Shown: positions 1,832-62,071, counted from the first letter of the stretch. The stretch: DNA of 64,000 nt from Minisyncoccota bacterium (GCA_028718785.1 JAQULB010000002.1:84750-148749); one strand, 5' to 3'. Numbers and translations are program-made. Notes: generated by a model not told the origin, from the sequence alone.

Positions 1832-4800
1832 ATGAGTAAATTAGCAAAGAAATTCGCAACAATTGCAACAATCATCACGGTTGTGGCAATGGTTGTGGGT
1901 CCTGTTGCTCCAGCTCAAGCGCAAACCACAGCTGAGCTTCAGGCCCAAGTAGCCGCTTTGCAAGCTCAATTAACTGCTCTACTTGCCCAGCTTAACGCAA
2001 CAACTGGTGGCACCACCGGCACAACCGGAACATTGCCATCTGGCTGTTCTTTTGACAGAAATTTAAAGCAAGGCATGTCTGGAGCGGATGTAAAATGCTT
2101 GCAACAGGTTTTAAACTCTGACGCTGACACGCGAGTGGCAGTTTCTGGAGTGGGATCTGCTGGTAATGAAACAACGTATTTTGGCTCCTTAACCACAGCC
2201 GCTGTTAACAAATACCAAGTAAAACAAGGTATCGTGGCAGTGGGAACGGGTTTTGTGGGTCCTCTTACCAGAGCTAAATTGAACGCAGGTACTACAGGAG
2301 GCGCCACAGGCACAACATTGCCTGCAGGATGCACCACAAATTCGGGCTATAGCCCAACAACAGGCCAGCCATGTGGAAGCGGAACAGCTGTGGTTATTCC
2401 AACCACTGGCGTTGTTACTGCTTCTTTAGCCAGCGACAATTCAGCTTCGGCTTCTATTGTTACTGATTCAACAGCAGGCGACGGCGCGCAGTCGTTAATT
2501 CCAATGCTTAAAGTTAATTTAAGCAATGGAACAGCTAGCCCAATAACTGTAACCTCAATGAAGTTCACTCGAAGCGGTATTTCCGATGACAGTGATATTT
2601 CACAGGCCTACCTTTACGATGGGGATACCATGTTAGCTGACTATAGTTCTTTCTCGTTGACTGTTTTAACCTTTAATTCAGCTTCGTTGATAACAATTCC
2701 AGCTAATACTGTTAAAACAATTACCTTGAAAGTTGACTTGGCTGATACAACAGACGCAGGTGGAAAAACTATCAGGTTTGGCATAAACGCCGCTTCTGAT
2801 ATTGTTTCTAATGCTTCTTCAATTGGGGGAGTATTTCCACTTACTGGCAACTATATGACAACTGCTCAAACAAGCAGTTTGGGAAAGTTGACTGTGGCTG
2901 TTCAAGCAACAAATCCAGCCGCTCCTGATCCAGGCGCTGGCGTTGAAGTGATGAAATTCACTTTAGCTGCTGCTGATCAAAATATTCAGGTTAAAAAATT
3001 AGTGTTCACTGATGTTGGAACTGTGGCTTACACTGACTTAACCAACTTCACTTTGTTTGATGCCGCTACCCCGATTGGTTCGGTTGTGGCTTCAGCCAAT
3101 TCTGATAAAACAGTTGTAATGGATTTGTCAGCAAGTCCTATCTTGATTGAAAAAGGCAACACCAAGAATATGACCTTGAAGGCCGATATTGTCGGGGGCA
3201 CAAGCCGAGATTACACATTCAAGTTCCAGAATATGTATGACATTGTGGCCTATGACACTCAATACGGCATTTATGTTAAGCCAAATCAGTCAGATACTTG
3301 GACAATTTTAAGCGGCGCGAAAGGAACCATTAATAATGGTACCGTAACCGCCACTAGAGCAACCGATTCTCCAAGTGGCAATATTTCGGCCTCTTCAACC
3401 AATCAGGTTTTGGCTAAGTTTGTCTTAAAAGCCAGTGGCGAAGATGTCAAAATTTCTGATTTAACTTTAAAGATTTATGGTTCTATTGGCGTTGTCGGTA
3501 TGTATCAAACCAGTGTTTATTATAATGGCGCCCAAGTGGGGCAAACAACCACTACAATGGATACTCAGGCAACCGCAGGAGCTACTGAGGGTGTAATTTT
3601 TAGCTTTGGCAATACCTTAATTCTTCCAGCTGGAAGTGAGAAGGTTTTGGAAATTAGGTCTGATGTTAAAAACGCTTCAGGAGGTTCAATTGCGGCTGGT
3701 TCAACTTTAACCGCCCAGGTTTCTTCCTTTACGGCAACTGGAAAAACATCAGGAGCAAGCGTTACAATCGGCTCGGTGACTGGTTATCAATTAACCGTGT
3801 CAGCAGGCACGCTTGTTGTAACGGAAAATCAAGCTGTTCCTGATTGGTCTTCTTCAACTCCAACAGGAGTGGCAGGAGCCACCAATGCTTTGATTGGTTC
3901 GTTTATTCTTACAGCTGGTTCTGGAGAAGGAGCTAGTGTAACCGCGCTTACAGCGCAGATTATTGGCACAGCTAACACAGAATACCAAAATGTTCGAATC
4001 TACAAAGGAACATTAGCAAGCGGTGTCCAACTTGGCGCTGCTTTGAATAATGGGGGAACTCCAACTGTGGCAACTGACTATACCGTATATCCAAGCCCAT
4101 ATCTTAGTTTGAACGCTGGAGAGCAAGTTGTGTTAAATGTTTATGCTGATATTTTAACCGGCGCTTCCACAGCCACAATTAAGAATGTTAAAATGGGCGT
4201 TGTTTATGGAACAGGCAAAGTAACCAACACCTCAGTTAACAGTTCTGGAACAGTAACCGGCCAAAACTTAGTTGTTTCTTCTGGCGGTTATGTGGGCGTG
4301 TTTGCTGATACAAACACCCCATCGGCTGGATTAGTGGTGATGGGAACAACTGGCGTTGAGTTTGCTAAATTTAAATTATCAGCAAGCTCTTCACCAGAAG
4401 CAATGACAATTTCTGGCCTTGTGGCAACAACCACTCTTAATGCAGGAACTGCTTTGGCCCCAACAAGTTCTGTAAGTAGCATTACATTGACTTCAGCTCT
4501 TAATCCTTCTTGGAGTGTAATACTACCAAGTTTGAGTTCTGCTGGTGTTGCTGACTTCACTGGTTTGATGACAGCAAATCCATTAGTTATCCCAGCGGGC
4601 GAAGAAGATGTTATCACCTTGAAAGCCAATATAGGTGTTTATGGAGCTGCTGATTCTAATTCATATATTGTTTTTGGATTGGCAACTACAACCTATAGAG
4701 GAGAATCAGGCAGTCCAACTACCATAGCTCCAGCTTACAGGGTGGCGGGCACCGCTCAATATATCTACAAGAGCAAGCCAACCGTTACTTTAATTGCTCA

Positions 4801-5365
4801 GCCAACTGCTGGATCTACATTCTCTGATGGCACGCAAACCTTGATTAAATTCAGGGTGGCCGCTGATTCCAAGGGCGCTATTGACCTTAACAGGGTTAAT
4901 ATTAAGGTGGCAATTAATGATATTGCCACTTCAACAAGCAACTTGTATCTTTCGGGAATTAGTTTGTATCAAATTGGCAATAGCACTGTTTTAAATAGCG
5001 CTGTGAGCATCAACGCAACAAGCTCAACAAGCTATATTGATTACTCAGCAAGTTCAACTGTGTCCGCTTCTAAGTTTGGAGGCGCTTTAACTGGCGATCC
5101 TTTATCAAAGACAGGTAACATTTTGTTGTCAAATACAGATGGAACTGCTTTGAAACAAATTGGAGCTGGCAACTACGTTGACTTTGAAGTAAAAGCAACT
5201 GTTACGGGTTCGGCTCAATACGATACAATGACCTTTAGCTTGGACAACCTTGGCTCGTCTTCAACAGACACTAATGCCATTAAGTGGGGTGATACCATTA
5301 CCAATGTTATTCCTGCCACCTATGTGACCGGTTTGCCAACTGACACTTGGTCATATACTAGATAG
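1832..5365 (+). CDS. giant secreted cell-surface protein (candidate S-layer/surface-array protein) with N-terminal coiled-coil + peptidoglycan-binding anchor
   Basis: 1177 aa. Signal peptide MSKLAKKFATIATIITVVAMVVGPVAPAQA; coiled coil AELQAQVAALQAQLTALLAQL; PG_binding_1-like LKQGMSGADVKCLQQVLN...YFGSLTTAAVNKYQVKQG...GPLTRAKLN. Then ~1000 aa rich in T/S/A/V with about six diverged ~150-aa beta-type modules. Confidence 0.8.
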   Translation: MSKLAKKFATIATIITVVAMVVGPVAPAQAQTTAELQAQVAALQAQLTALLAQLNATTGGTTGTTGTLPSGCSFDRNLKQGMSGADVKCLQQVLNSDADTRVAVSGVGSAGNETTYFGSLTTAAVNKYQVKQGIVAVGTGFVGPLTRAKLNAGTTGGATGTTLPAGCTTNSGYSPTTGQPCGSGTAVVIPTTGVVTASLASDNSASASIVTDSTAGDGAQSLIPMLKVNLSNGTASPITVTSMKFTRSGISDDSDISQAYLYDGDTMLADYSSFSLTVLTFNSASLITIPANTVKTITLKVDLADTTDAGGKTIRFGINAASDIVSNASSIGGVFPLTGNYMTTAQTSSLGKLTVAVQATNPAAPDPGAGVEVMKFTLAAADQNIQVKKLVFTDVGTVAYTDLTNFTLFDAATPIGSVVASANSDKTVVMDLSASPILIEKGNTKNMTLKADIVGGTSRDYTFKFQNMYDIVAYDTQYGIYVKPNQSDTWTILSGAKGTINNGTVTATRATDSPSGNISASSTNQVLAKFVLKASGEDVKISDLTLKIYGSIGVVGMYQTSVYYNGAQVGQTTTTMDTQATAGATEGVIFSFGNTLILPAGSEKVLEIRSDVKNASGGSIAAGSTLTAQVSSFTATGKTSGASVTIGSVTGYQLTVSAGTLVVTENQAVPDWSSSTPTGVAGATNALIGSFILTAGSGEGASVTALTAQIIGTANTEYQNVRIYKGTLASGVQLGAALNNGGTPTVATDYTVYPSPYLSLNAGEQVVLNVYADILTGASTATIKNVKMGVVYGTGKVTNTSVNSSGTVTGQNLVVSSGGYVGVFADTNTPSAGLVVMGTTGVEFAKFKLSASSSPEAMTISGLVATTTLNAGTALAPTSSVSSITLTSALNPSWSVILPSLSSAGVADFTGLMTANPLVIPAGEEDVITLKANIGVYGAADSNSYIVFGLATTTYRGESGSPTTIAPAYRVAGTAQYIYKSKPTVTLIAQPTAGSTFSDGTQTLIKFRVAADSKGAIDLNRVNIKVAINDIATSTSNLYLSGISLYQIGNSTVLNSAVSINATSSTSYIDYSASSTVSASKFGGALTGDPLSKTGNILLSNTDGTALKQIGAGNYVDFEVKATVTGSAQYDTMTFSLDNLGSSSTDTNAIKWGDTITNVIPATYVTGLPTDTWSYTR

Positions 5366-52536: not shown

Positions 52537-55212
52537 ATGCAGAAAAATTGGCACGAAATTTCATTGACGAAAATTTACTCAATATTGAAAACCCATCCCA
52601 ATGGGTTAAGCATAGAGGAGGCGAATTTTCGGTTACAAAAAAATGGCAAAAATGTTTTGCCTTCAACAAAACCGCTTTCTAAAAAAAAGCTTTTTTTTAG
52701 CCAGTTTAACAGCCCTTTAATGTATATTCTTTTAACAGCGGTTGTTGTTTCTTCTTTTTTAAAGCATCTTTCTGACACTATTTTTATTGTTGTGGTTTTG
52801 TTTATTAACACCACTGTGGGATTTTATCAAGAAAACAAAGCCAACAAATCTTTGGTTGCTTTAAAAAATATGATAAAGATAAAAGCCAAAGTTTTGCGCG
52901 ATAGCAATGAAAAAGAAATCGACAGCGAGGATGTGGTTGTGGGGGATGTGGTTATATTAAAAACGGGAGATAAAGTTCCTTGCGATGGCCGAATTATTGA
53001 ATCAAAAAATTTAAAAGTTGATGAAGCCAGTTTAACTGGGGAATTTATGGCGGTGAAAAAGGATATAGCGCAAAAAATACCAGAAAAAGCGTCTCTTGCT
53101 GAGCAGCTTAATATGGTTTTTATGGGCACAATTGTTGAGGAAGGAGAGGCCAAGTTAATAACCACAGGAATTGGCCTTAACACAGAAATTGGCAAAGTTG
53201 TTAAGTTGTTGAAAGAAACTAAAGAAAGAAGAACACCTCTTCAAAAGAAAATCCTCACGCTTTCAAAGCAAACCGCTGCTTTTATTTTAGCTATTATTTT
53301 GGTTATTATTTTAATTGGGCATTTTACAGAAAAATCTTTTAATGACATATTAGTGGCTTCGTTGGCTTTGGCTGTTTCAGCCATTCCTGAAGGTCTCTTG
53401 CCAGCTATTACTGTTATATTAACTTTGGGAATGCGTCGGATTTTTAAACAAAAAGGATTGGTGAGAAAATTAATTGCCACTGAAACTTTGGGGAGCGTAA
53501 CTGTTATTTGCGCTGATAAAACAGGCACTTTAACTGAGGGCAAAATGCAAGTGAGCGATATTTTAACAAGCACGACAGAATTGTTGAACGGCAATTTTAA
53601 GGGAATTTTACAAAACAAAAATTCAAACGGGGTTGAGTCGCATATTCTTGCTTTAAAAATTGCCACTTTGGTTAATGAAGCGTTTGTGGAAAATCCCGAT
53701 CAAGAATTAGAGAAATGGGTAATAAGGGGAAGGCCAACCGACCAGGCCTTGTTGATAGCTGGAATGCAAGCTGGTTTATATAAAAAAGAGCTGGAGGTTC
53801 AGTATCCTTTAATTGACAGAATTAATTTTGAATCTGGCGCAAAATATGCCACCACTTATCGTAAACTTAACAATAAGAAAAATATTTTATACGCTTTGGG
53901 CGCCCCGGAAATAATTATTGAAAAGTCAACTCATTTGGATATTGATGGCAAAAAGAAAAAGTTAAGTTCTGTTGCTTTAAACAAACTCCTTCTTAGGGTT
54001 GATAATTTAACTAAAAAGGGCTTAAGGGTATTGGCTTGTAGCTACAAAGAATACCCTTTATCCACAAAGTATAAAAATTTAAATGAGTTAAGAGAAAAAA
54101 CAATATTGGTTGGTTTTATTGCCATTAAAGACCCCTTAAGACCTGATGCCTCAGAATCTATTGAAATTACTAAAAAAGCTGGCATCCGCGCAGTTATTAT
54201 CACAGGGGACCACAAATTAACAGCCCAAACAATTGCTTTGGAGGTTGGGCTTGAAGCAGAAAAAGAAAATATTTTAGAAGGAAAAGAAATTGATGACTTG
54301 AGCGATGCGGACTTAAAAGAAAAAGTTAAATTTGTTTCAGTTTATGCGCGGGTTTCTCCCAGCCATAAGCTTCGTATTGTAAAAGCTCTTCAAGATAACA
54401 ACGAGGTTGTGGCTATGGTGGGAGATGGAGTCAATGATGCTCCAGCTTTAAAAATTGCTGATATTGGCATTTCTTTGGGCTCTGGAACGGATGTGGCAAA
54501 AGAATCTGCGGATTTGGTTTTACTTGATAATAATTTTAAAACCATTATTAAGGCCATTGAACAAGGGAGGGTTGTGTTTGGAAATATAAGAAAGGTTTTT
54601 ACCTATTTAGTGGCTGATGACTTTTCGGAGCTGTTTTTATTTTTGGGTTGTATGATAATGGGATTTCCCTTACCGCTCCTACCAGCTCAGATTCTTTGGA
54701 TAAATTTAGTGGAAGATGGATTCCCTGATATTGCCTTAACAACTGAGCAGGAAACAAAAGGCATAATGGACGAGCCCCCCAGAGACCCCAAAGAGCCAAT
54801 TTTAAACAAACCCTTAAAAAAATGGATGGCTTTTATTTTTTTAATCTCTGGATTGGCGGCTTTTCTTGCGTTTTTGCTTTTTTGGAAAATTTTTGGGCAA
54901 TTAGAAAAAGCCAGAACAATGACTTTTGCTTTAATGTGTTTTGACTCTTTAGCGTTTGCTTTTTCTGTGAGGTCGTTTAAAAGAACGATTTTTAGAAAAG
55001 ATATTTTCTCTAACAGGTATTTGGTTTTTGGCGTTGCGTTGGGGCTTGTTTTGTTGTTTGGAGCTATTTACTTTCCACCCTTACAAAAACTTTTAGCCAC
55101 TCAACCTTTAGGCAGTATTGATTGGCTGATGATTTTTGGCATTAGCTTAACAGAAATTATTTTAATAGAAACTGCCAAGAAACTGGTTTTTGGCTTTAAA
55201 AAAATAAAATAA
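52537..55212 (+). CDS. P-type cation-transporting ATPase (P2, Ca2+/Mg2+-type)
   Basis: 891 aa. TGE region, phosphorylation site CADKTGTLTEG, ITGDHKLTA, VGDGVNDAPALKIADIGISLG, about 10 TM helices. Confidence 0.9.
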   Translation: MQKNWHEISLTKIYSILKTHPNGLSIEEANFRLQKNGKNVLPSTKPLSKKKLFFSQFNSPLMYILLTAVVVSSFLKHLSDTIFIVVVLFINTTVGFYQENKANKSLVALKNMIKIKAKVLRDSNEKEIDSEDVVVGDVVILKTGDKVPCDGRIIESKNLKVDEASLTGEFMAVKKDIAQKIPEKASLAEQLNMVFMGTIVEEGEAKLITTGIGLNTEIGKVVKLLKETKERRTPLQKKILTLSKQTAAFILAIILVIILIGHFTEKSFNDILVASLALAVSAIPEGLLPAITVILTLGMRRIFKQKGLVRKLIATETLGSVTVICADKTGTLTEGKMQVSDILTSTTELLNGNFKGILQNKNSNGVESHILALKIATLVNEAFVENPDQELEKWVIRGRPTDQALLIAGMQAGLYKKELEVQYPLIDRINFESGAKYATTYRKLNNKKNILYALGAPEIIIEKSTHLDIDGKKKKLSSVALNKLLLRVDNLTKKGLRVLACSYKEYPLSTKYKNLNELREKTILVGFIAIKDPLRPDASESIEITKKAGIRAVIITGDHKLTAQTIALEVGLEAEKENILEGKEIDDLSDADLKEKVKFVSVYARVSPSHKLRIVKALQDNNEVVAMVGDGVNDAPALKIADIGISLGSGTDVAKESADLVLLDNNFKTIIKAIEQGRVVFGNIRKVFTYLVADDFSELFLFLGCMIMGFPLPLLPAQILWINLVEDGFPDIALTTEQETKGIMDEPPRDPKEPILNKPLKKWMAFIFLISGLAAFLAFLLFWKIFGQLEKARTMTFALMCFDSLAFAFSVRSFKRTIFRKDIFSNRYLVFGVALGLVLLFGAIYFPPLQKLLATQPLGSIDWLMIFGISLTEIILIETAKKLVFGFKKIK

Positions 55213-55237
55213 TTTGCTATAATGCAATTAAATAATC

Positions 55238-55260
55238 AAGCGCCAAAAAAGCGCTTTTTA
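55238..55260 (+). terminator. short intrinsic terminator
   Basis: aagcgc-caaaaaa-gcgctt followed by a T-run. Confidence 0.55.
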
Positions 55261-55281
55261 TTATATTTATAAATTCTATTT

Positions 55282-56451
55282 ATGAAAATTCTTTATATTC
55301 ATCAAGATAGAAAACTAAAAACAGGCGCTCACTATATAAATGATATTCTTATGAAAGGCCTAAAAAGAGCCGGGGTGGAGGTGGAAAATGTTTACCCTGA
55401 AGAAGATTTGGGATATTTTCACCCGCTTTTAAAGGGCATTAGAAATATTCTTTTCTTTTTTTCTTTAATTGAACGAAAAAAAGACATTGCCTCTTATGAT
55501 ATTATTCAGGGGACAACCTATACTCCTTTAGCTTTTTTGCATAGCAACATTCCAGTTTTTTCAATTTTTGGCTCAACCTCTTATGGTTTTTTAAAAGCTG
55601 TTCCCAATTCAAAGGCTTTGAATAAAGAACATTCAGAGCTTTTTAAAATATTAAGTGAGTTAAAAGAAAGAGGCGTTTTAAGTTGCGTTGGATCTTTTAG
55701 TCAGCCAGTTAAGGATGTGAGCCGAATTGAATTTCATACAGCAAAAAATAGTCGCAGGGTGGTAGCCACCTCCCAAGGCGTAAAGTCAGAACTTGTTAAA
55801 AATGGAGTGCCCCAAGAAAAAGTAGCGGTTGTTTGGAATGGCATAGAAAATTTTTGGTTTAAAACAAAACCAAAAAAACGGCTTAAAAAAACCGCTGGTC
55901 TTGTTTATTTGGGCAGAATGGGAGAGGATAGCTTTACCGTTAAATTAAAGGGAATAAATAGAATGATTTATATTTTAAGGTCTTTTCCCAACTTAGAAAA
56001 AGTTATTATTGGCTTAACCGAAAAAAAAGATATTTACAGTCAGGTTTTTCATGCCGTTCCCAAGACCACATTTTATCCCAATTTAAAAAGAAGGGCAATG
56101 CCAAAAATATTAAAGAAAAGTTATGGAGATATCTTTATAAACCCCAGTCGCTATGAAGGATTTTGTTTATCTTTAGTGGAGGCAATGTCTCAAGGATTAA
56201 TTCCCATTAGTTTTTCAGTGGGAGTGGCTCCTGAAATTATTAAAAATGGCCAAAATGGATTTTTAGTAAATAGTGTTCGCCAGATGATTTTTAAGATAAA
56301 CAAATTATCTCAAGACAAGGAAAAAAGAGCTCAAATGGCAAAAGCGGCTTTTGAAACAGCTAAAATGTTTAAAGCTGAAATAATGGTTAAAAAGTATATT
56401 GAACTTTATGAATCTGAATTGCCCCCTAAAGCTCCCTGTTGTGAAGTATAA
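55282..56451 (+). CDS. glycosyltransferase family 4 (GT-B)
   Basis: NPSRYEGFCLSLVEAMSQGLIPISFSVGVAPEIIKNGQNGFLV. Confidence 0.8.
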   Translation: MKILYIHQDRKLKTGAHYINDILMKGLKRAGVEVENVYPEEDLGYFHPLLKGIRNILFFFSLIERKKDIASYDIIQGTTYTPLAFLHSNIPVFSIFGSTSYGFLKAVPNSKALNKEHSELFKILSELKERGVLSCVGSFSQPVKDVSRIEFHTAKNSRRVVATSQGVKSELVKNGVPQEKVAVVWNGIENFWFKTKPKKRLKKTAGLVYLGRMGEDSFTVKLKGINRMIYILRSFPNLEKVIIGLTEKKDIYSQVFHAVPKTTFYPNLKRRAMPKILKKSYGDIFINPSRYEGFCLSLVEAMSQGLIPISFSVGVAPEIIKNGQNGFLVNSVRQMIFKINKLSQDKEKRAQMAKAAFETAKMFKAEIMVKKYIELYESELPPKAPCCEV

Positions 56452-57563: not shown

Positions 57564-57676
57564 AATATCTAATAACATAAAACTAATAATAAATAACATT
57601 AAAAATTTATCCCCTTGAAAGGGGGTATTTTTTTTAGTATTGTAGAAGAATAGCTTTTAAATAAAACTTTATTTCA

Positions 57677-58984
57677 ATGGATCCCGTTTATTTTGCTCAA
57701 ATTACAAAAGGAATATTAGGAATTTTGTGGTCAGTTTTTAAAGTTTGGTGGTGGCTTCCTTTGCCTTTTATTATTTTTCCAAAGTTAAAGTTTATATACG
57801 AATGGTATATGAACGATGTGTATTGGGGAAAAGCTAATTGGATGGTTTTGGAGGTTAAAATACCCAAAGAAATTGACAGACCATTAAAAGCAATGGAGCA
57901 GGTTATCTCTAACTTTTGGACTTTGTATGATCCTCCTGATTTTAAGGAAAGATGGTTTGAGGGAAAGTATTTGTTAAATTTTTCTTTGGAAATTGCTTCA
58001 ATTGATGGAAAAATTCATTTTTATATTTATTTACCCGGAGCTATGAGAAAAGCGTTTGAGTCAGCTATTTATTCTCAGTACCCAGAAGTGGAAATTGAGC
58101 AAGTAATGGATTATACTCGCATGGTTCCCCAAGACATTCCTAATAAGGACTGGGATATGTGGGCTTGCAACTTTAAGATGATGAAAAAAAGGTGCTATCC
58201 CATTAAAACTTATCTTAGTTTTTTTGAACCAACTCAAGAAATTGAAGAAGAAAGAAGAGTTGACCCACTAGCTGTTCTTTTAGAAGGAATGTCGCGTTTA
58301 AGACCCGGGGAGCAATTATGGTTTCAAGTTATATTAAAGCCAATTTTGTTAGATAGTGAAAACGATTGGAAGGTGGAAGGCCGGGAGGAATTATCCAAAC
58401 TTTTAAAAAGGCCTTTGCCAGTAAAAGACAATAAAACAATTGTGGGAGAGGCGTATAATCTTTTGGTTCATGACAAAGAGCCATTTAAAGGTGAAGAAAA
58501 AGTTGAGCCCTTATTGCCCCCTGAACTGCATTTAAGCCCGGGTGAAAGAGAAATAGTGCAAGGCATTGAAAATAAAATGTCAAAACATGGTTTTGAAACA
58601 ATAATAAGAATGATTCTTTTGGGGAAAAAGGATGTTTTTTTCAAGCCCAATTTGCGCTTGGTTTTAAATTTATCAAGCGGTGTTTCCACTATAAATTTAA
58701 ACGGCTTAAAGCCATTTATGACAACCAAGGTGGTTGCTCCAGCTTTTTACAGGGATAAAAGGCTTTATATTAAAAAGAGAAAACTTTTTAGAAGATATTT
58801 AAGCAGGTGGGCTTATTTTTTCCCAAAAACTGTGCCCGGACAAAGTCATGGCCACTTAGTTTTAAATCCAGAGGAAATAGCCACTTTGTGGCATTTTCCA
58901 GGCAAAGCAGCCATGCCAGCGGCCGGATTGGAAACAATTGAATCAAAGAAAGCTGGCCCACCAGCCAATCTACCCATTGGGTAA
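57677..58984 (+). CDS. hypothetical membrane protein (partner of the downstream VirD4/TraD-like ATPase)
   Basis: 435 aa. An N-terminal Trp-rich hydrophobic segment, one or two TM helices (ILGILWSVFKVWWWLPLPFIIFP), then a large soluble domain. No family recognised. Confidence 0.5.
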   Translation: MDPVYFAQITKGILGILWSVFKVWWWLPLPFIIFPKLKFIYEWYMNDVYWGKANWMVLEVKIPKEIDRPLKAMEQVISNFWTLYDPPDFKERWFEGKYLLNFSLEIASIDGKIHFYIYLPGAMRKAFESAIYSQYPEVEIEQVMDYTRMVPQDIPNKDWDMWACNFKMMKKRCYPIKTYLSFFEPTQEIEEERRVDPLAVLLEGMSRLRPGEQLWFQVILKPILLDSENDWKVEGREELSKLLKRPLPVKDNKTIVGEAYNLLVHDKEPFKGEEKVEPLLPPELHLSPGEREIVQGIENKMSKHGFETIIRMILLGKKDVFFKPNLRLVLNLSSGVSTINLNGLKPFMTTKVVAPAFYRDKRLYIKKRKLFRRYLSRWAYFFPKTVPGQSHGHLVLNPEEIATLWHFPGKAAMPAAGLETIESKKAGPPANLPIG

Positions 58985-59118
58985 ATCTTAATATCTAAAT
59001 CCTAAATCCTAAACAAATCCAAATGACCAAAACCCAAAATCCAAAACAAAAAAGACAAACTGAGCCATTTTGGATTTAAAACATTTTGGCTTTGAGTTTA
59101 TTTAGAGTTTAAACATCT

Positions 59119-60912
59119 ATGGAGGAAATTACATTTTTTGGCGAGACCTCATTTCGCAACGAGCGTAAAAGATTTGGTATTAAGCTTGATGACAGGCGTA
59201 AGCATGTTTATGTTATTGGAAAAACTGGAATGGGAAAGACCCAACTTTTAAAAAATATGGCCATTCAGGATATTCAAAATGGCCATGGCCTTGGGTTTGT
59301 TGACCCACACGGAGAAGCAGCCAGCGAGCTTTTGGACTATATTCCCAAAGAAAGAATTAAAGATGTTATTTATTTTAATCCTGCTGATTTAGATTATCCA
59401 ATTAGTTTTAATGTAATGGAAAAAGTGGATGTTGAGTTTAGACATCTTGTGGCTTCTGGTTTAATGGGTGTTTTCAAAAAAATATGGCCTGATGTTTGGT
59501 CAGCTCGAATGGAGTATATCTTAAATAATTGCATTTTATCTTTGTTAGAATATCCCAATTCAACTCTGCTTGGCGTTAACAGGATTTTAGCTGATGAAGA
59601 ATATCGGGCCAAAGTGGTTGAGGTAATAAAAGACCCAATTGTTAAATCATTTTGGCTTAATGAGTTTGCGAGATATTCTCAAAAATATGAAACTGAAGCA
59701 ACTGCTGCCATTCAAAATAAAATAGGCCAGTTTATTTCTTCCCCGCTTATTCGCAATATTATTGGCCAAACAAAATCGTCTCTTGATATGAGAAAAATAA
59801 TGGATGAAGAAAAGATTTTAATTATGGACCTTTCAAAGGGCAGGATAGGGGAGGACTCTTCAAAATTATTGGGCGGACTTTTAATCACCAAACTGCAGTT
59901 AGCGGCTATGTCGAGAGTGGATATTCCAGAAGACGATAGAAAGGACTTCTTTTTGTATGTTGACGAATTTCAAAATTTTGCCACAGAATCATTTGCTAAT
60001 ATTTTATCAGAAGCAAGAAAATATCGATTGGGCTTAACTTTGGGGCATCAATATATAACCCAAATGGATGAAACCGTTAGAGATGCTGTTTTTGGCAATG
60101 TGGGCACAATGATTGTTTTTAGGGTGGGAGCAGAAGACGCTGAGTTTTTAGAAAAAGAGTTTGCGCCTAATTTAACAGCAAATGATATTGTAAATTTGGG
60201 GAAGTATAATATTTACACAAAATTAATGGTTAATGGCATTGCCTCAGATCCTTTTTCAGCTGATACTCTTCCCCCCCTAGATATGCCAGCAAAATCGTTT
60301 AAAGAAGAAATAATTGAGTCCTCAAGAAAAGCGTATGCGGGCATTCGTGAAAAAATAGAGGGAGATATCTCTAAATGGACTGGGGATTTTGTATTGCAAA
60401 AAGATTTTAAAAAGCCAATCGAGCTTTATGATGCGGTGTGCGAGGGTTGTAAAAAAAATACCAAAGTGCCGTTTAAGCCAGACAATAAAAGGCCGGTTTA
60501 TTGCAAGGCCTGTTTAAAAAAAATGGAAACTGAATCTTCCCCAGAAGAAAAAAGTGATAATTTAAAAGAGCGCGCTTCTGTTGTTTCAAATTTATCCGCA
60601 GAAAAACTAAGCGTTCCGCCCGTTGTTAAAAAAGAAATTCCCCGAAAAGAAGTTGAGCCAAAAGAGGAATATAGCGAGGAAAAGGGAACTGTTTCTTTAG
60701 AAGAGCTTTTATTGAGAAATACTGTTCCTTTTGGGAAAAAACAAAAAGAGGAACAGAAAAAAGCCAAACAAGAAATTAACAAAGAGAAGCTAAAAGAGGC
60801 CATTAAAGAATCATTAAAAGATATTGAAATATCAAAAAAAGAAGAGGAAAAGAAAAAACAAGATAATTTGCCAAAAGAAATAAGCCCGGGGGAAGTTATA
60901 AAATTTGAATAA
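59119..60912 (+). CDS. VirD4/TraD/TrwB-like (type IV coupling protein-like) P-loop ATPase with C-terminal zinc ribbon and K/E-rich tail
   Basis: 597 aa. Walker A VIGKTGMGKTQL, Walker B FFLYVDEFQNFAT, GHQYITQ. Zn ribbon CEGCKKNTKVPFKPDNKRPVYCKACLKK, then ~110 aa of K/E-rich low complexity. Confidence 0.7.
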   Translation: MEEITFFGETSFRNERKRFGIKLDDRRKHVYVIGKTGMGKTQLLKNMAIQDIQNGHGLGFVDPHGEAASELLDYIPKERIKDVIYFNPADLDYPISFNVMEKVDVEFRHLVASGLMGVFKKIWPDVWSARMEYILNNCILSLLEYPNSTLLGVNRILADEEYRAKVVEVIKDPIVKSFWLNEFARYSQKYETEATAAIQNKIGQFISSPLIRNIIGQTKSSLDMRKIMDEEKILIMDLSKGRIGEDSSKLLGGLLITKLQLAAMSRVDIPEDDRKDFFLYVDEFQNFATESFANILSEARKYRLGLTLGHQYITQMDETVRDAVFGNVGTMIVFRVGAEDAEFLEKEFAPNLTANDIVNLGKYNIYTKLMVNGIASDPFSADTLPPLDMPAKSFKEEIIESSRKAYAGIREKIEGDISKWTGDFVLQKDFKKPIELYDAVCEGCKKNTKVPFKPDNKRPVYCKACLKKMETESSPEEKSDNLKERASVVSNLSAEKLSVPPVVKKEIPRKEVEPKEEYSEEKGTVSLEELLLRNTVPFGKKQKEEQKKAKQEINKEKLKEAIKESLKDIEISKKEEEKKKQDNLPKEISPGEVIKFE

Positions 60913-60913
60913 T

Positions 60914-62071
60914 ATGTTTAGAAGTTTAAATGATTACAATTTTTTTAATAAAAAGGTTTTAGTGAGGTGCGATTTTAATGTGGCAATTGAAAGGGGCAAG
61001 GTTGTTGATGATTTTAAAATAAAAAGAGCCCAAAAAACCATAGAGTATTTAAAAGAAAGCGGGGCAAAAATAATTTTGGCCAGTCACTTAGAAAAAGACA
61101 ATTTTTTTGATAGAGCGAGTTTGAGGCCAGTTTCTGTGGTTTTAGAAAAGTTATTTAGTGAGAAAACACTATTTTCTCCAAAATGTATTGGGAAAAAAGC
61201 TAAAAGAATGGCTGAAAATCTAAAACCTGGCCAGATTTTACTTTTAGAAAATTTACGCTTCAATAAGGGTGAAAAGAAAAATAGCGAAAAGTTTGCCAAA
61301 GAGCTTGCGGGATTGGCTGAAATTTATGTTGGGGAGGCCTTTAGTTGTTGTCATAGAGACCATGCTTCTATTGTTTCTTGTCCAAAACTTTTACCTCATT
61401 TTATTGGGCTCGAATGTGAGAGGGAAATAAGCGTTTTAAGTTCTTTGATGGAAAAACCAGAAAGACCGTTAGTTGTTTTAGTTGGGGGGGCCAAGGTGGA
61501 GGCAAAATTAAAAATGATTAAAAAGTTTTTGCCATTGGCTGATCATTTGCTTTTTGGGGGGAAGATTGCTAATGTTTTGCTTTCAGTGAAGGGTATTGTG
61601 GTTGAAAATTCAGAGATTAGCTCTCAAACAAAAAGAATTTTATCTCAAATTAACTTAACTGATCCTAAAATCCATTTACCTTTAGATGTTTTAGCATCTT
61701 TGGGCGGTAAAAACGATAATGTAAGGCAAGTGGCTTTGGGAGGTATAAGAAAAGAAGAAGAAATTTTTGACATTGGAGAGGCAACCCAAGAAAAATTTTC
61801 AGAAATTTTGAAAACAGCTAAAACTATTTTTTGGTCTGGAGATTTAGGGCTTGTTGAGAATCCAAAATTTAGAAATGGCACATCGGAAATTGTTAAAGCA
61901 ATAGGGAAGAACAAGAGCGCTTTAAGGGTGGCTGGGGGAGGAGATACGGTGGCCTTTATAAGGAGCGAGGGTATGGAAGGCGATTTTTCTTTTCTGTCGA
62001 TTGGAGGAAGCGCTTTATTGGAGTTTATAGCCAACGGAACCCTGCCTGGCGTTGAAGCGCTGAAAATATAA
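60914..62071 (+). CDS. pgk: phosphoglycerate kinase
   Basis: KKVLVRCDFNV, ILASHL, LLENLRFNKGEKKN, GEAFSCCHRDHAS, GGAKVEAKL, GGGDT. The ATG at 60914 is preferred to the TTG at 60905. Confidence 0.9.
   Translation: MFRSLNDYNFFNKKVLVRCDFNVAIERGKVVDDFKIKRAQKTIEYLKESGAKIILASHLEKDNFFDRASLRPVSVVLEKLFSEKTLFSPKCIGKKAKRMAENLKPGQILLLENLRFNKGEKKNSEKFAKELAGLAEIYVGEAFSCCHRDHASIVSCPKLLPHFIGLECEREISVLSSLMEKPERPLVVLVGGAKVEAKLKMIKKFLPLADHLLFGGKIANVLLSVKGIVVENSEISSQTKRILSQINLTDPKIHLPLDVLASLGGKNDNVRQVALGGIRKEEEIFDIGEATQEKFSEILKTAKTIFWSGDLGLVENPKFRNGTSEIVKAIGKNKSALRVAGGGDTVAFIRSEGMEGDFSFLSIGGSALLEFIANGTLPGVEALKI

Follow-up and report, generated by a model that had tools for sequence, protein, structure and literature searches.

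What does a coupling-type ATPase do in a bacterial chromosome when it has no membrane segment of its own, and what is the tryptophan-rich protein encoded beside it? The question is raised by a locus in a stretch of 64,000 nucleotides from a Minisyncoccota bacterium (GCA_028718785.1, JAQULB010000002.1:84750-148749), which was analysed as a whole and is referred to here as the window. Two consecutive genes encode P1 (MDD5738636.1, annotated as "hypothetical protein") and P2 (MDD5738637.1), accessions obtained by exact-sequence match to a Candidatus Paceibacterota (Pacebacteria) metagenome-assembled genome. A description made from the DNA alone, hereafter the sequence-only reading, had taken P2 for an orphan coupling ATPase and P1 for a possible partner with an unrecognisable domain. 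Our best reading is that P1 and P2 are two halves of one ATPase, produced by gene fission. We put its chances somewhat above even, an estimate that covers the explanation as a whole, namely that the pair is a gene-fission variant of a Patescibacteria-specific coupling-protein family and acts as a membrane-anchored translocation or coupling ATPase. Searches returned 1,369 homologues of P1 with a word-indexed method and 1,623 clusters at 50% identity with an exhaustive one, and more than 8,000 homologues of P2. Both open reading frames lie on the + strand at the positions given in the sequence-only reading, and with so many homologues P1 and P2 are real genes and not chance open reading frames.

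The ATPase identity of P2 is the most direct part of the answer. Pfam matches to TrwB_AAD_bind (PF10412; 8e-9, 35.2 bits against a cut-off of 20.5, aligned over residues 25-339), TraG-D_C (PF12696; 24.4 bits against 22) and DUF87 (28.3 bits) all exceed their cut-offs. Compared by sequence with proteins of solved structure, P2 retrieved TrwB (5e-6) and DotL only. In Foldseek searches the ATPase half superimposed on TrwB with a template modelling score (TM-score) of 0.63-0.66 and a root-mean-square deviation of ~4.8 Å, followed by HerA, Cag-beta and DotL; the HerA entry 4d2i matched only the ATPase core of the joined model described below. P2 is collinear with TrsK, the coupling protein of pSK41, whereas against the VirB4 homologue TrsE it gave a P-loop match only. 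The Walker A and Walker B motifs are separated by ~240 residues, which are almost entirely helical in the model (helices at residues 540-650 of the joined protein) and may correspond to the all-alpha domain that coupling proteins have inserted there. These comparisons support the placement of P2 in the VirD4/TrwB coupling-protein branch. The sequence-only reading had recognised the two Walker motifs, the TrwB likeness and the lack of N-terminal transmembrane helices, and each of these stands: both motifs were located, and P2 has no hydrophobic segment, its highest Kyte-Doolittle hydropathy over 19 residues being 1.05.

P1 carries DUF8128 (PF26449). This assignment is a precomputed tag, found on an identical protein (P0001) and on nearly all homologues, including those in the loci described below. 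P1 had no match in the local Pfam, which lacks PF26449, in NCBIfam or in searches of PDB sequences, where neither the single sequence nor a 33-sequence profile retrieved a chain even at E<=10. An AlphaFold2 model of P1 alone has a mean predicted local distance difference test score (pLDDT) of 78.7 and consists of an N-terminal helical hairpin followed by alpha/beta domains. When the model was searched against the PDB with Foldseek, the top 14 matches were all TrwK/VirB4 chains of the R388 type IV secretion system (T4SS; 8.6e-6 to 7e-3), and the matches beyond these were unrelated and not significant. The domain that had been called unrecognisable is thus DUF8128, the split-off N-terminal half of an ATPase, with a predicted fold like the N-terminal domain of VirB4.

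Two elements of P1 stand out in the family alignment. The first is the hydrophobic N-terminus (residues ~9-38), with the consensus W...K.WWW.PLPF, in which W24, W26 and P30 are invariant or nearly so; this motif is more striking than the overall hydrophobicity of the segment. The sequence-only reading had proposed one or two transmembrane helices here. The segment is present and is modelled as a hairpin, which makes it a probable membrane anchor, but its hydropathy is borderline, and it could be single-pass, re-entrant or interfacial. The second element, LNPEEIATLWHFPG, is the most conserved motif of P1, with N397, E399, E400, A402 and H406 invariant, and an hhalign alignment shows it retained in the Bacillus phage G protein gp156 as LNVQEMSQFIHLPG. 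Since this motif directly precedes the ATPase domain in natural fusions, it is probably a junction or docking element towards P2.

Natural fusions provide the evidence that the two proteins belong together. The family phrog_5156 (824 positions) covers both, P1 at positions 49-288 and P2 at positions 407-803 (2.5e-61). Phage G gp156 (825 residues) is itself a fusion: the P1 family profile (P1 residues 77-414) aligned to gp156 residues 32-315 with a probability of 96.8% and an E-value of 2.7e-10, and gp156 aligned to P2 residues 23-411 at 2e-35. Patescibacteria have hundreds of fusions of ~725-995 residues, and a search seeded with gp156 retrieved many of them (Berkelbacteria, Falkowbacteria, Gottesmanbacteria, Saccharibacteria), tagged with PF26449 together with TrwB_AAD_bind, DUF87 and TraG-D_C. 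Below the phage-G-like group, the matches listed include 92 proteins of 726-1,142 residues, nearly all of which combine PF26449 with VirD4/HerA-type ATPase domains (PF10412, PF01935, PF02534, PF12696); those with a named source are from Patescibacteria. Aligned together with the pair, the fused proteins show 41-56% identity to P2 over the ATPase domain and 20-29% to P1 over DUF8128. They share with the pair both halves, their order and the LNxEE..H.PG motif, and differ in being a single chain in which the halves join directly, in having a more hydrophobic N-terminus (median hydropathy 2.78, compared with 1.67 in the P1 family) and in lacking a zinc finger.

The two genes are also inherited together. 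A pattern scan of one genome per species with the motif at P1 residues 396-409 found a P1 relative in at least 565 species genomes. Eighty loci were fetched, and P2 lies directly 3' of P1 in 65 of the 69 with enough flanking sequence, the other four having unrelated genes downstream of P1. The order SecD - SecF - (sigma-70 region 4 + HARE-HTH) - P1 - P2 - PGK - DHH - RNase H recurs at 45-53% P1 identity. The pair is conserved across hundreds of species of the candidate phyla radiation. P1 had no tblastn match in phage or plasmid records and no relative on IMG/VR contigs, so that the fused forms had to be reached via P2 and phrog_5156. An hhalign comparison of the P1 profile with gp91 of phage CP-51 was not significant; the related protein of phage JL does resemble the joined model described below in structure.

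To model the halves as one chain, P1 was fused directly to P2 residues 1-472, and AlphaFold2 was run on an alignment of P1 homologues, P2 homologues and fusions. The resulting model of 907 residues has a mean pLDDT of 89.7 and a predicted TM-score of 0.78, and its P1 part rises to a pLDDT of ~88 from the value obtained for P1 alone. It matches independently predicted single-chain viral fusions end to end (gp156, E 3e-45; a 913-residue protein of Bacillus phage JL, TM-score 0.61 over 915 columns), and its best PDB matches are full-length TrwK/VirB4 (2.4e-14, 920-976 columns). With homology, fission and fusion, synteny, domain folds and a confident joined model established here, P1 and P2 together make up one ATPase of the coupling-protein family, inherited as two halves, with intact catalytic motifs and with its only candidate membrane anchor in P1. 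Physical association of P1 with P2 is very likely. The idea that the upstream protein is a partner supplying the anchor has therefore held up with respect to gene order, to the clade of the ATPase, whose best matches are TrwB, DotL and VirB4 and not FtsK or HerA, and to the modelled interaction.

Two further explanations are addressed by the same observations. One is that the pair is left over from, or carried by, a mobile element, a phage or a defence system, for instance as a mad8-like ATPase of the MADS system. The PADLOC mad8 profile does match P2 (5e-17), and Bacillus phage G and SPO1-like phages encode fused homologues. Against this, the SecDF - sigma-r4/HARE-HTH - P1 - P2 - PGK - DHH - RNase H order is kept in many species, this part of the window shows no shift in base composition or strand bias, the surroundings contain no integrase, methylase or nuclease partner and no other defence component, and the absence of P1 relatives from phage records, plasmids and IMG/VR contigs argues against a mobile-element origin. 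We regard this explanation as barely credible and already largely refuted; the chromosomal, housekeeping setting proposed by the sequence-only reading is borne out by the conserved synteny. Alternatively, the pair could serve chromosome housekeeping, pumping DNA during segregation or division as FtsK and SpoIIIE do. Its core-genome location, the 60-76% identity of P2 across classes, its near-universal distribution and its membership of the FtsK/HerA superfamily would suit such a role. We consider it highly improbable, since neither the FtsK_SpoIIIE motor nor the KOPS-reading gamma domain was matched in Pfam or NCBIfam, the best matches lie elsewhere, no division genes are linked to the pair, and Saccharibacteria retain an ftsK gene, FtsK being reportedly discussed in TM7x transcriptome papers. 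The Southlakia homologue is also reported to be non-essential (PMC12102498). HerA-NurA was likewise rejected as a candidate: the similarity is confined to DUF87 and the HerA ATPase core, and none of the neighbours resembles NurA.

The reading of P1-P2 as a split coupling-type ATPase can be refined by comparison with known machines. With the coupling proteins VirD4, TrwB, TraD and DotL, P2 shares the P-loop ATPase, perhaps the helical insertion between Walker A and Walker B, the above-cut-off TrwB_AAD_bind and TraG-D_C matches, a C-terminal extension with docking-type motifs, as in TraD and DotL, and close fused relatives that adjoin a T4SS. Coupling proteins differ in having an N-terminal transmembrane domain on their own chain, whereas P2 has none and would take its anchor from a separate gene; canonical members also lack the ~350-residue VirB4-N-terminal-like domain that P1 carries. 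Furthermore, P2 has a zinc finger, and its neighbourhood contains neither a relaxase nor a T4SS. With VirB4/TrwK, the joined P1+P2 protein appears to share a two-part layout of a membrane-proximal N-terminal domain and a RecA-like C-terminal ATPase, and the P1 hairpin recalls VirB3, a protein that serves VirB4 as an anchor and in some cases forms one chain with it. However, the ATPase domain of P2 is closer to VirD4 than to VirB4, no Pfam match of P1 or P2 to the VirB4 profiles CagE_TrbE_VirB, AAA_10 or P-loop_TraG was found at E<=0.1, and Patescibacteria with fused relatives encode a separate bona fide VirB4 adjoining them. The TrwB superposition, the TrsK collinearity and the TrwK-like two-part layout together suggest a motor of VirD4 type in an architecture of VirB4 type.

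A precedent for a divided arrangement exists in the staphylococcal plasmids pGO1 and pSK41, where TrsD, a small protein with remote homology to the N-terminus of VirB4, is encoded directly 5' of the VirB4-type ATPase TrsE (PMC12102498). TrsD has only 227 residues and TrsE is a VirB4, not a coupling protein; an hhalign comparison of the P1 profile with pSK41 TrsD gave nothing (probability 0.1%).

P2 differs from its fused relatives in its C-terminus. The CxxC...CxxC ribbon noted by the sequence-only reading is confirmed as a CEGC-x17-CKAC element that matches zf_Tbcl_2 (PF23477; 4e-14, 52.5 bits against a cut-off of 27) and TIGR04272 (8e-14, 51.2 bits against 36), and C441, C444, C462 and C465 are invariant in 24 of 24 P2 homologues. 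The finger is present in all 24 split P2 proteins and in none of 39 fused relatives; it is thus specific to the split form, and zinc binding is predicted. A domain of zf_Tbcl_2 type binds zinc in small proteins of M. mazei (Methanosarcina) (PMC12704099). The tail that follows is rich in K and E, as the sequence-only reading had noted, with 42% K+E, and ranges from 45 to 156 residues across the family. It is net-neutral in this protein, with a net charge of -2 to +16 among the 24 homologues. It contains three conserved short motifs, SLEELLLRN..VPFG, KQEINKEKLKEAIKESL and a C-terminal ISPGEVIKFE, whose consensus in the alignment is SLEELLLK..VPFS, K..RKEVN.EELK.AL.ESL and G.I.PGE.IKF. Because a net-neutral tail with conserved peptide motifs fits docking or spacing better than non-specific nucleic-acid binding, a partner-docking or spacer role is more likely than the binding of nucleic acid that had been suggested. 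The C-terminal extensions of TraD and DotL carry partner-docking peptides.

The wider family gives an indication of the machine with which the pair might work. Three fused relatives of ~728 residues (P0485, P0490 and P0444), 48-51% identical to the ATPase domain of P2, were placed in their loci, and all three divergently adjoin genes for PrgI, a TraC-like protein, VirB4, an M23 peptidase and a T4SS pilin next to dnaN. This cluster corresponds to the T4SS that Quinonero-Coronel et al. 2025 reported from Patescibacteria. A second fused form of ~825 residues lies in another housekeeping order, L27 - ferredoxin - 159-residue gene - fused protein - DnaX - SerRS. The family thus has three forms: T4SS-linked fused, housekeeping-context fused, and split with a zinc finger, to which the window pair belongs. 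The label "orphan" is correct for the locus in the window and incorrect for the family. A published survey counted 5,713 VirD4-type homologues in 2,918 of 3,035 Patescibacteria genomes (~96%, about two per genome), only 148 of them near virB4, and its authors considered exaptation of the coupling-protein homologue possible (PMC12102498). Several family forms fit the published number per genome and the position of most homologues away from virB4.

Several side observations concern the fused forms. The ~825-residue fusion is always preceded by a small ferredoxin and a 159-residue protein with no Pfam match, with DnaX after it (L091, L093, L094), and the 159-residue gene could be a further conserved partner of this form. 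A Berkelbacteria-like contig (L095, 4899-10784) has tandem DUF8128 proteins of 831 and 927 residues with a 178-residue gene between them and SecDF adjoining on the opposite strand; this second link between DUF8128 and SecDF may be more than coincidence. Fused DUF8128-ATPases of 825-913 residues are found in large Bacillus phages, namely phage G (L007, 87972-97183) and SPO1-like phages such as CP-51 (L008), JL, Shanette and CampHawk, and some records mis-annotate them as "lipid A export MsbA". In phage G the fused gene is preceded by gp155, which carries a VirB-like annotation and is itself a match of the joined model (2.7e-13). Four loci with synteny typical of Patescibacteria (L068, L069, L079, L081) come from bins labelled Bathyarchaeia, Gammaproteobacteria or Bdellovibrionales, and many others are labelled Saccharibacteria despite a Paceibacteria-like gene order; these labels are probably binning or taxonomy errors.

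We propose the following mechanism for the split coupling-type ATPase. In this family a hydrophobic anchor and the ~350-residue DUF8128 domain would replace the usual short transmembrane domain. P1 would be held at the cytoplasmic face of the membrane by its Trp-rich hairpin, and its C-terminal LNxEELAxxxHFPG region would dock on the N-terminal beta-hairpin of P2, restoring the single-chain protomer of the relatives. Protomers would form a ring, by analogy with TrwB, VirB4 and HerA; membrane anchoring and ring formation are both reasonably likely. ATP hydrolysis at the Walker motifs would then power the recruitment or threading of a polymer, either nucleic acid or unfolded protein, towards a membrane channel, and the zinc finger and tail motifs of the split form may recruit substrate or an adaptor. 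The partner channel is presumed to be a chromosomal patescibacterial T4SS encoded elsewhere in the genome, which is the most likely candidate because the close fused relatives are encoded beside one. That the pair works with a T4SS is a serious possibility to which we give a little less than an even chance.

A number of results weigh against this explanation. P2 falls far short of every NCBIfam cut-off for a conjugative coupling protein, by a factor of 10-20, the individual values being 39 bits against 250 for CD1115, 35 against 366 for SXT TraD, 31 against 648 for TOL TraD and 19 against 521 for F TraD. The hydropathy of the P1 anchor, 1.59, is borderline for a transmembrane helix. TM-scores against VirB4 are low (0.26-0.35 for P1, 0.22-0.35 overall), from which it follows that domain orientation or details differ, and the likeness is structural only, as neither the profile against PDB sequences nor hhalign against TrsD gave a signal at the sequence level. 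For these reasons we treat the resemblance of P1 to the VirB4 N-terminal domain as a well-supported lead that falls short of proving homology. The joined model, moreover, approximates the pair by one chain. No T4SS genes were found in the window, nor in the ±8 kb flanks of relatives with called genes listed. VirB4 was found in 2,417 of the surveyed Patescibacteria genomes (PMC12102498), so that, with homologues in 2,918, at least ~500 genomes have a coupling-protein homologue and no T4SS. Finally, in Ca. Southlakia epibionticum the coupling-protein homologue, which may be of the split or of a fused form, is reported to be non-essential for epibiotic growth, while T4SS genes are essential (PMC12102498).

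The same facts bear on the possibility that P1-P2 is an import motor independent of the T4SS, which would bring in DNA or RNA, host-derived or environmental, by way of another channel, for instance ComEC or some other pore, in the manner of the archaeal Ced ATPases. CedB and CedD share the layout of a transmembrane segment, a VirB4-N-terminal-like domain and a HerA/VirB4-type ATPase, are chromosomal and outside conjugative elements, and show that such an architecture can drive import; cedD is encoded apart from the ced cluster, and CedD is essential for DNA import (PMC11868833). Coupling-protein homologues are moreover more widespread than VirB4, the zinc finger is confined to the split form, which sits away from the T4SS, and uptake of host RNA was recently reported for a patescibacterium in culture (bioRxiv 10.64898/2026.06.21.733656). 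P2 also matches the NCBIfam CedD model (NF053655, E 1.3e-6), but weakly, at 27.4 bits against a cut-off of 600 and over the P-loop region (residues 9-88) only. The Ced ATPases differ in being archaeal, of the HerA clade by sequence, single-chain and without a zinc finger. Neither the window nor the inspected loci of relatives have competence genes beside the pair, the P2 tail is net-neutral, and the close fused relatives are T4SS-linked. We therefore judge a T4SS-independent import motor to be unlikely. The more specific idea that the split pair pulls host RNA or DNA into Patescibacteria as a bacterial counterpart of Ced, either independently of the T4SS or with a T4SS run inwards, is a long shot.

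The immediate surroundings of the split ATPase (Table 1) suggest one more interpretation. The 339-residue upstream neighbour, whose HARE-HTH domain weakly matches RNA polymerase delta, may be a factor particular to this lineage that associates with RNA polymerase. Its gene lies directly 5' of P1 in 75 of the 80 loci, even in distant ones without PGK and DHH downstream, and SecDF is upstream in most. P1-P2 might accordingly not be a translocase at all, and instead be a membrane-tethered ATPase that regulates or assembles another machine, such as Sec export or a pilus, or that acts with the sigma-r4/HARE-HTH protein. VirB4 itself functions in machine and pilus assembly (PMC12102498), and the docking-type motifs conserved in the P2 tail would suit such a role. 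However, a terminator-like hairpin separates the upstream gene from P1, and in small genomes that rearrange slowly a conserved order carries little weight by itself. We consider this interpretation very unlikely and retain the translocation or coupling ATPase.

Table 1. Coordinates of the P1-P2 locus and its features in the 64,000-nucleotide window; residue numbers refer to the protein named.
Feature	Position	Strand	Basis
Upstream neighbour, 339 residues	56544..57563	+	Sigma-70 region 4 (N-terminal) + HARE-HTH; NCBI: sigma factor-like HTH DNA-binding protein
Terminator-like hairpin (TATCCCCTTGAAAGGGGGTA) and eight-T run	57608..57635	+	Consensus scan and sequence reading; consensus match only
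P1, 435 residues, DUF8128 (PF26449)	57677..58984	+	Open reading frame; PF26449 tag; phrog_5156; hhalign; AlphaFold2; Foldseek
Trp-rich hydrophobic helical hairpin, P1 residues 3-52	57683..57832	+	P1 family alignment; DSSP helices 3-24 and 28-52
Motif LNPEEIATLWHFPG, P1 residues 396-409	58862..58903	+	P1 family alignment
P1-P2 spacer, 134 nucleotides	58985..59118	+	AAATCC-type direct repeats; inverted repeat AAATCCAAAA/TTTTGGATTT
P2, 597 residues: soluble TrwB/VirD4-type P-loop ATPase (residues ~20-420), zinc finger, K/E-rich tail	59119..60912	+	Open reading frame; profiles; Foldseek
Walker A GKTGMGKT, P2 residues 34-41	59218..59241	+	G34, K35, T36, G37, M38, G39 and K40 invariant
Walker B FLYVDE, P2 residues 278-283	59950..59967	+	Inside invariant block LYxDEFQNFAT
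CxxC-x17-CxxC treble-clef zinc finger, P2 residues 441-465 (CEGCKKNTKVPFKPDNKRPVYCKAC)	60439..60513	+	PF23477, TIGR04272
K/E-rich tail, P2 residues 466-597 (132 residues)	60514..60909	+	Composition, alignment

The hairpin lies between the upstream sigma-r4/HARE-HTH gene and P1 and is likely to be the 5' boundary of a P1-P2(-pgk) transcription unit. The spacer between P1 and P2 is unusually long: in relatives a median of ~32 nucleotides separates the end of the P1 match from the projected start of P2. Its inverted repeat AAATCCAAAA/TTTTGGATTT is perfect over 10 nucleotides, and the spacer repeats could form a small regulatory hairpin or be a repeat remnant. At 60905-60914, the pgk open reading frame as listed begins with a TTG and overlaps the final 8 nucleotides of P2; an ATG at 60914, two bases past the P2 stop codon, is the more likely start. 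As the genes are tightly packed whichever start is used, P2 and pgk are probably co-transcribed. In relatives SecF directly precedes the sigma-r4/HARE-HTH gene, whereas here a P-type cation ATPase (891 residues) and a GT4 glycosyltransferase (389 residues) intervene at 52537-56451 (+), and they look like a local insertion into the conserved order.

In the window as a whole, the pair has SecA, SecD, SecF, the P-type ATPase, the glycosyltransferase, PGK, a DHH/DHHA1 protein, MurB and a large glycan cluster as neighbours. Open reading frames of at least 120 residues were scanned, save a few short ones, and no VirB-type, relaxase or pilin genes were found among them, in agreement with the sequence-only reading. 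G+C content is 0.31-0.38 from 8 kb onwards and is uniform, with positive GC skew, across the region holding the locus. Nearly all genes lie on the + strand, and each 2-kb bin has a positive GC skew, which fits a single replichore whose genes are strongly co-oriented with replication. The sole stretch of raised G+C (0.42-0.44, compared with ~0.33 elsewhere) contains a 1,177-residue open reading frame without a Pfam match at 1832-5365 (+); no Rfam family was found in the window, this stretch included. A cell-surface glycan locus at ~9200-45300 is very large given the small genome. It encodes many glycosyltransferases, epimerases/dehydratases, DegT-type aminotransferases, methyltransferases, a radical SAM/SPASM enzyme and a flippase, as well as NeuB and a CMP-sugar cytidylyltransferase of a nonulosonic-acid pathway, a Wzy-like ligase with TPR repeats and an 891-residue protein with a marginal CotH match (25.8 bits against a cut-off of 23.8, E 9e-6).

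Part of this picture is not new: annotations exist for the ATPase family, a 2025 publication had noted its orphan status in Patescibacteria, and DUF8128 is a Pfam entry. A literature search on the name "DUF8128" returned no papers. What appears to be new is the obligatory pairing of DUF8128 with the ATPase, whether fused or split, the likeness of the partner's predicted fold to VirB4, the separation of the family into three forms and the conserved tail motifs. The pair does not represent a new kind of machine. It is a component that nearly the whole phylum has and that can be approached by experiment. What was an annotation curiosity becomes a defined two-gene target in the few culturable Patescibacteria, with the tail motifs of the split form usable as bait for partners. 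The findings also bear on the relationship between VirB4 and VirD4. A more speculative possibility is that the family is a coupling protein that retains a VirB4-type N-terminal domain, which would make it a living intermediate between the two. Patescibacteria make up a large share of bacterial diversity and cannot make nucleotides, lipids or most amino acids, and must therefore draw material from host cells. How material crosses the cell boundary is the central question of the phylum, and P1-P2 is a candidate for moving nucleic acid or protein across the membrane of these parasites.

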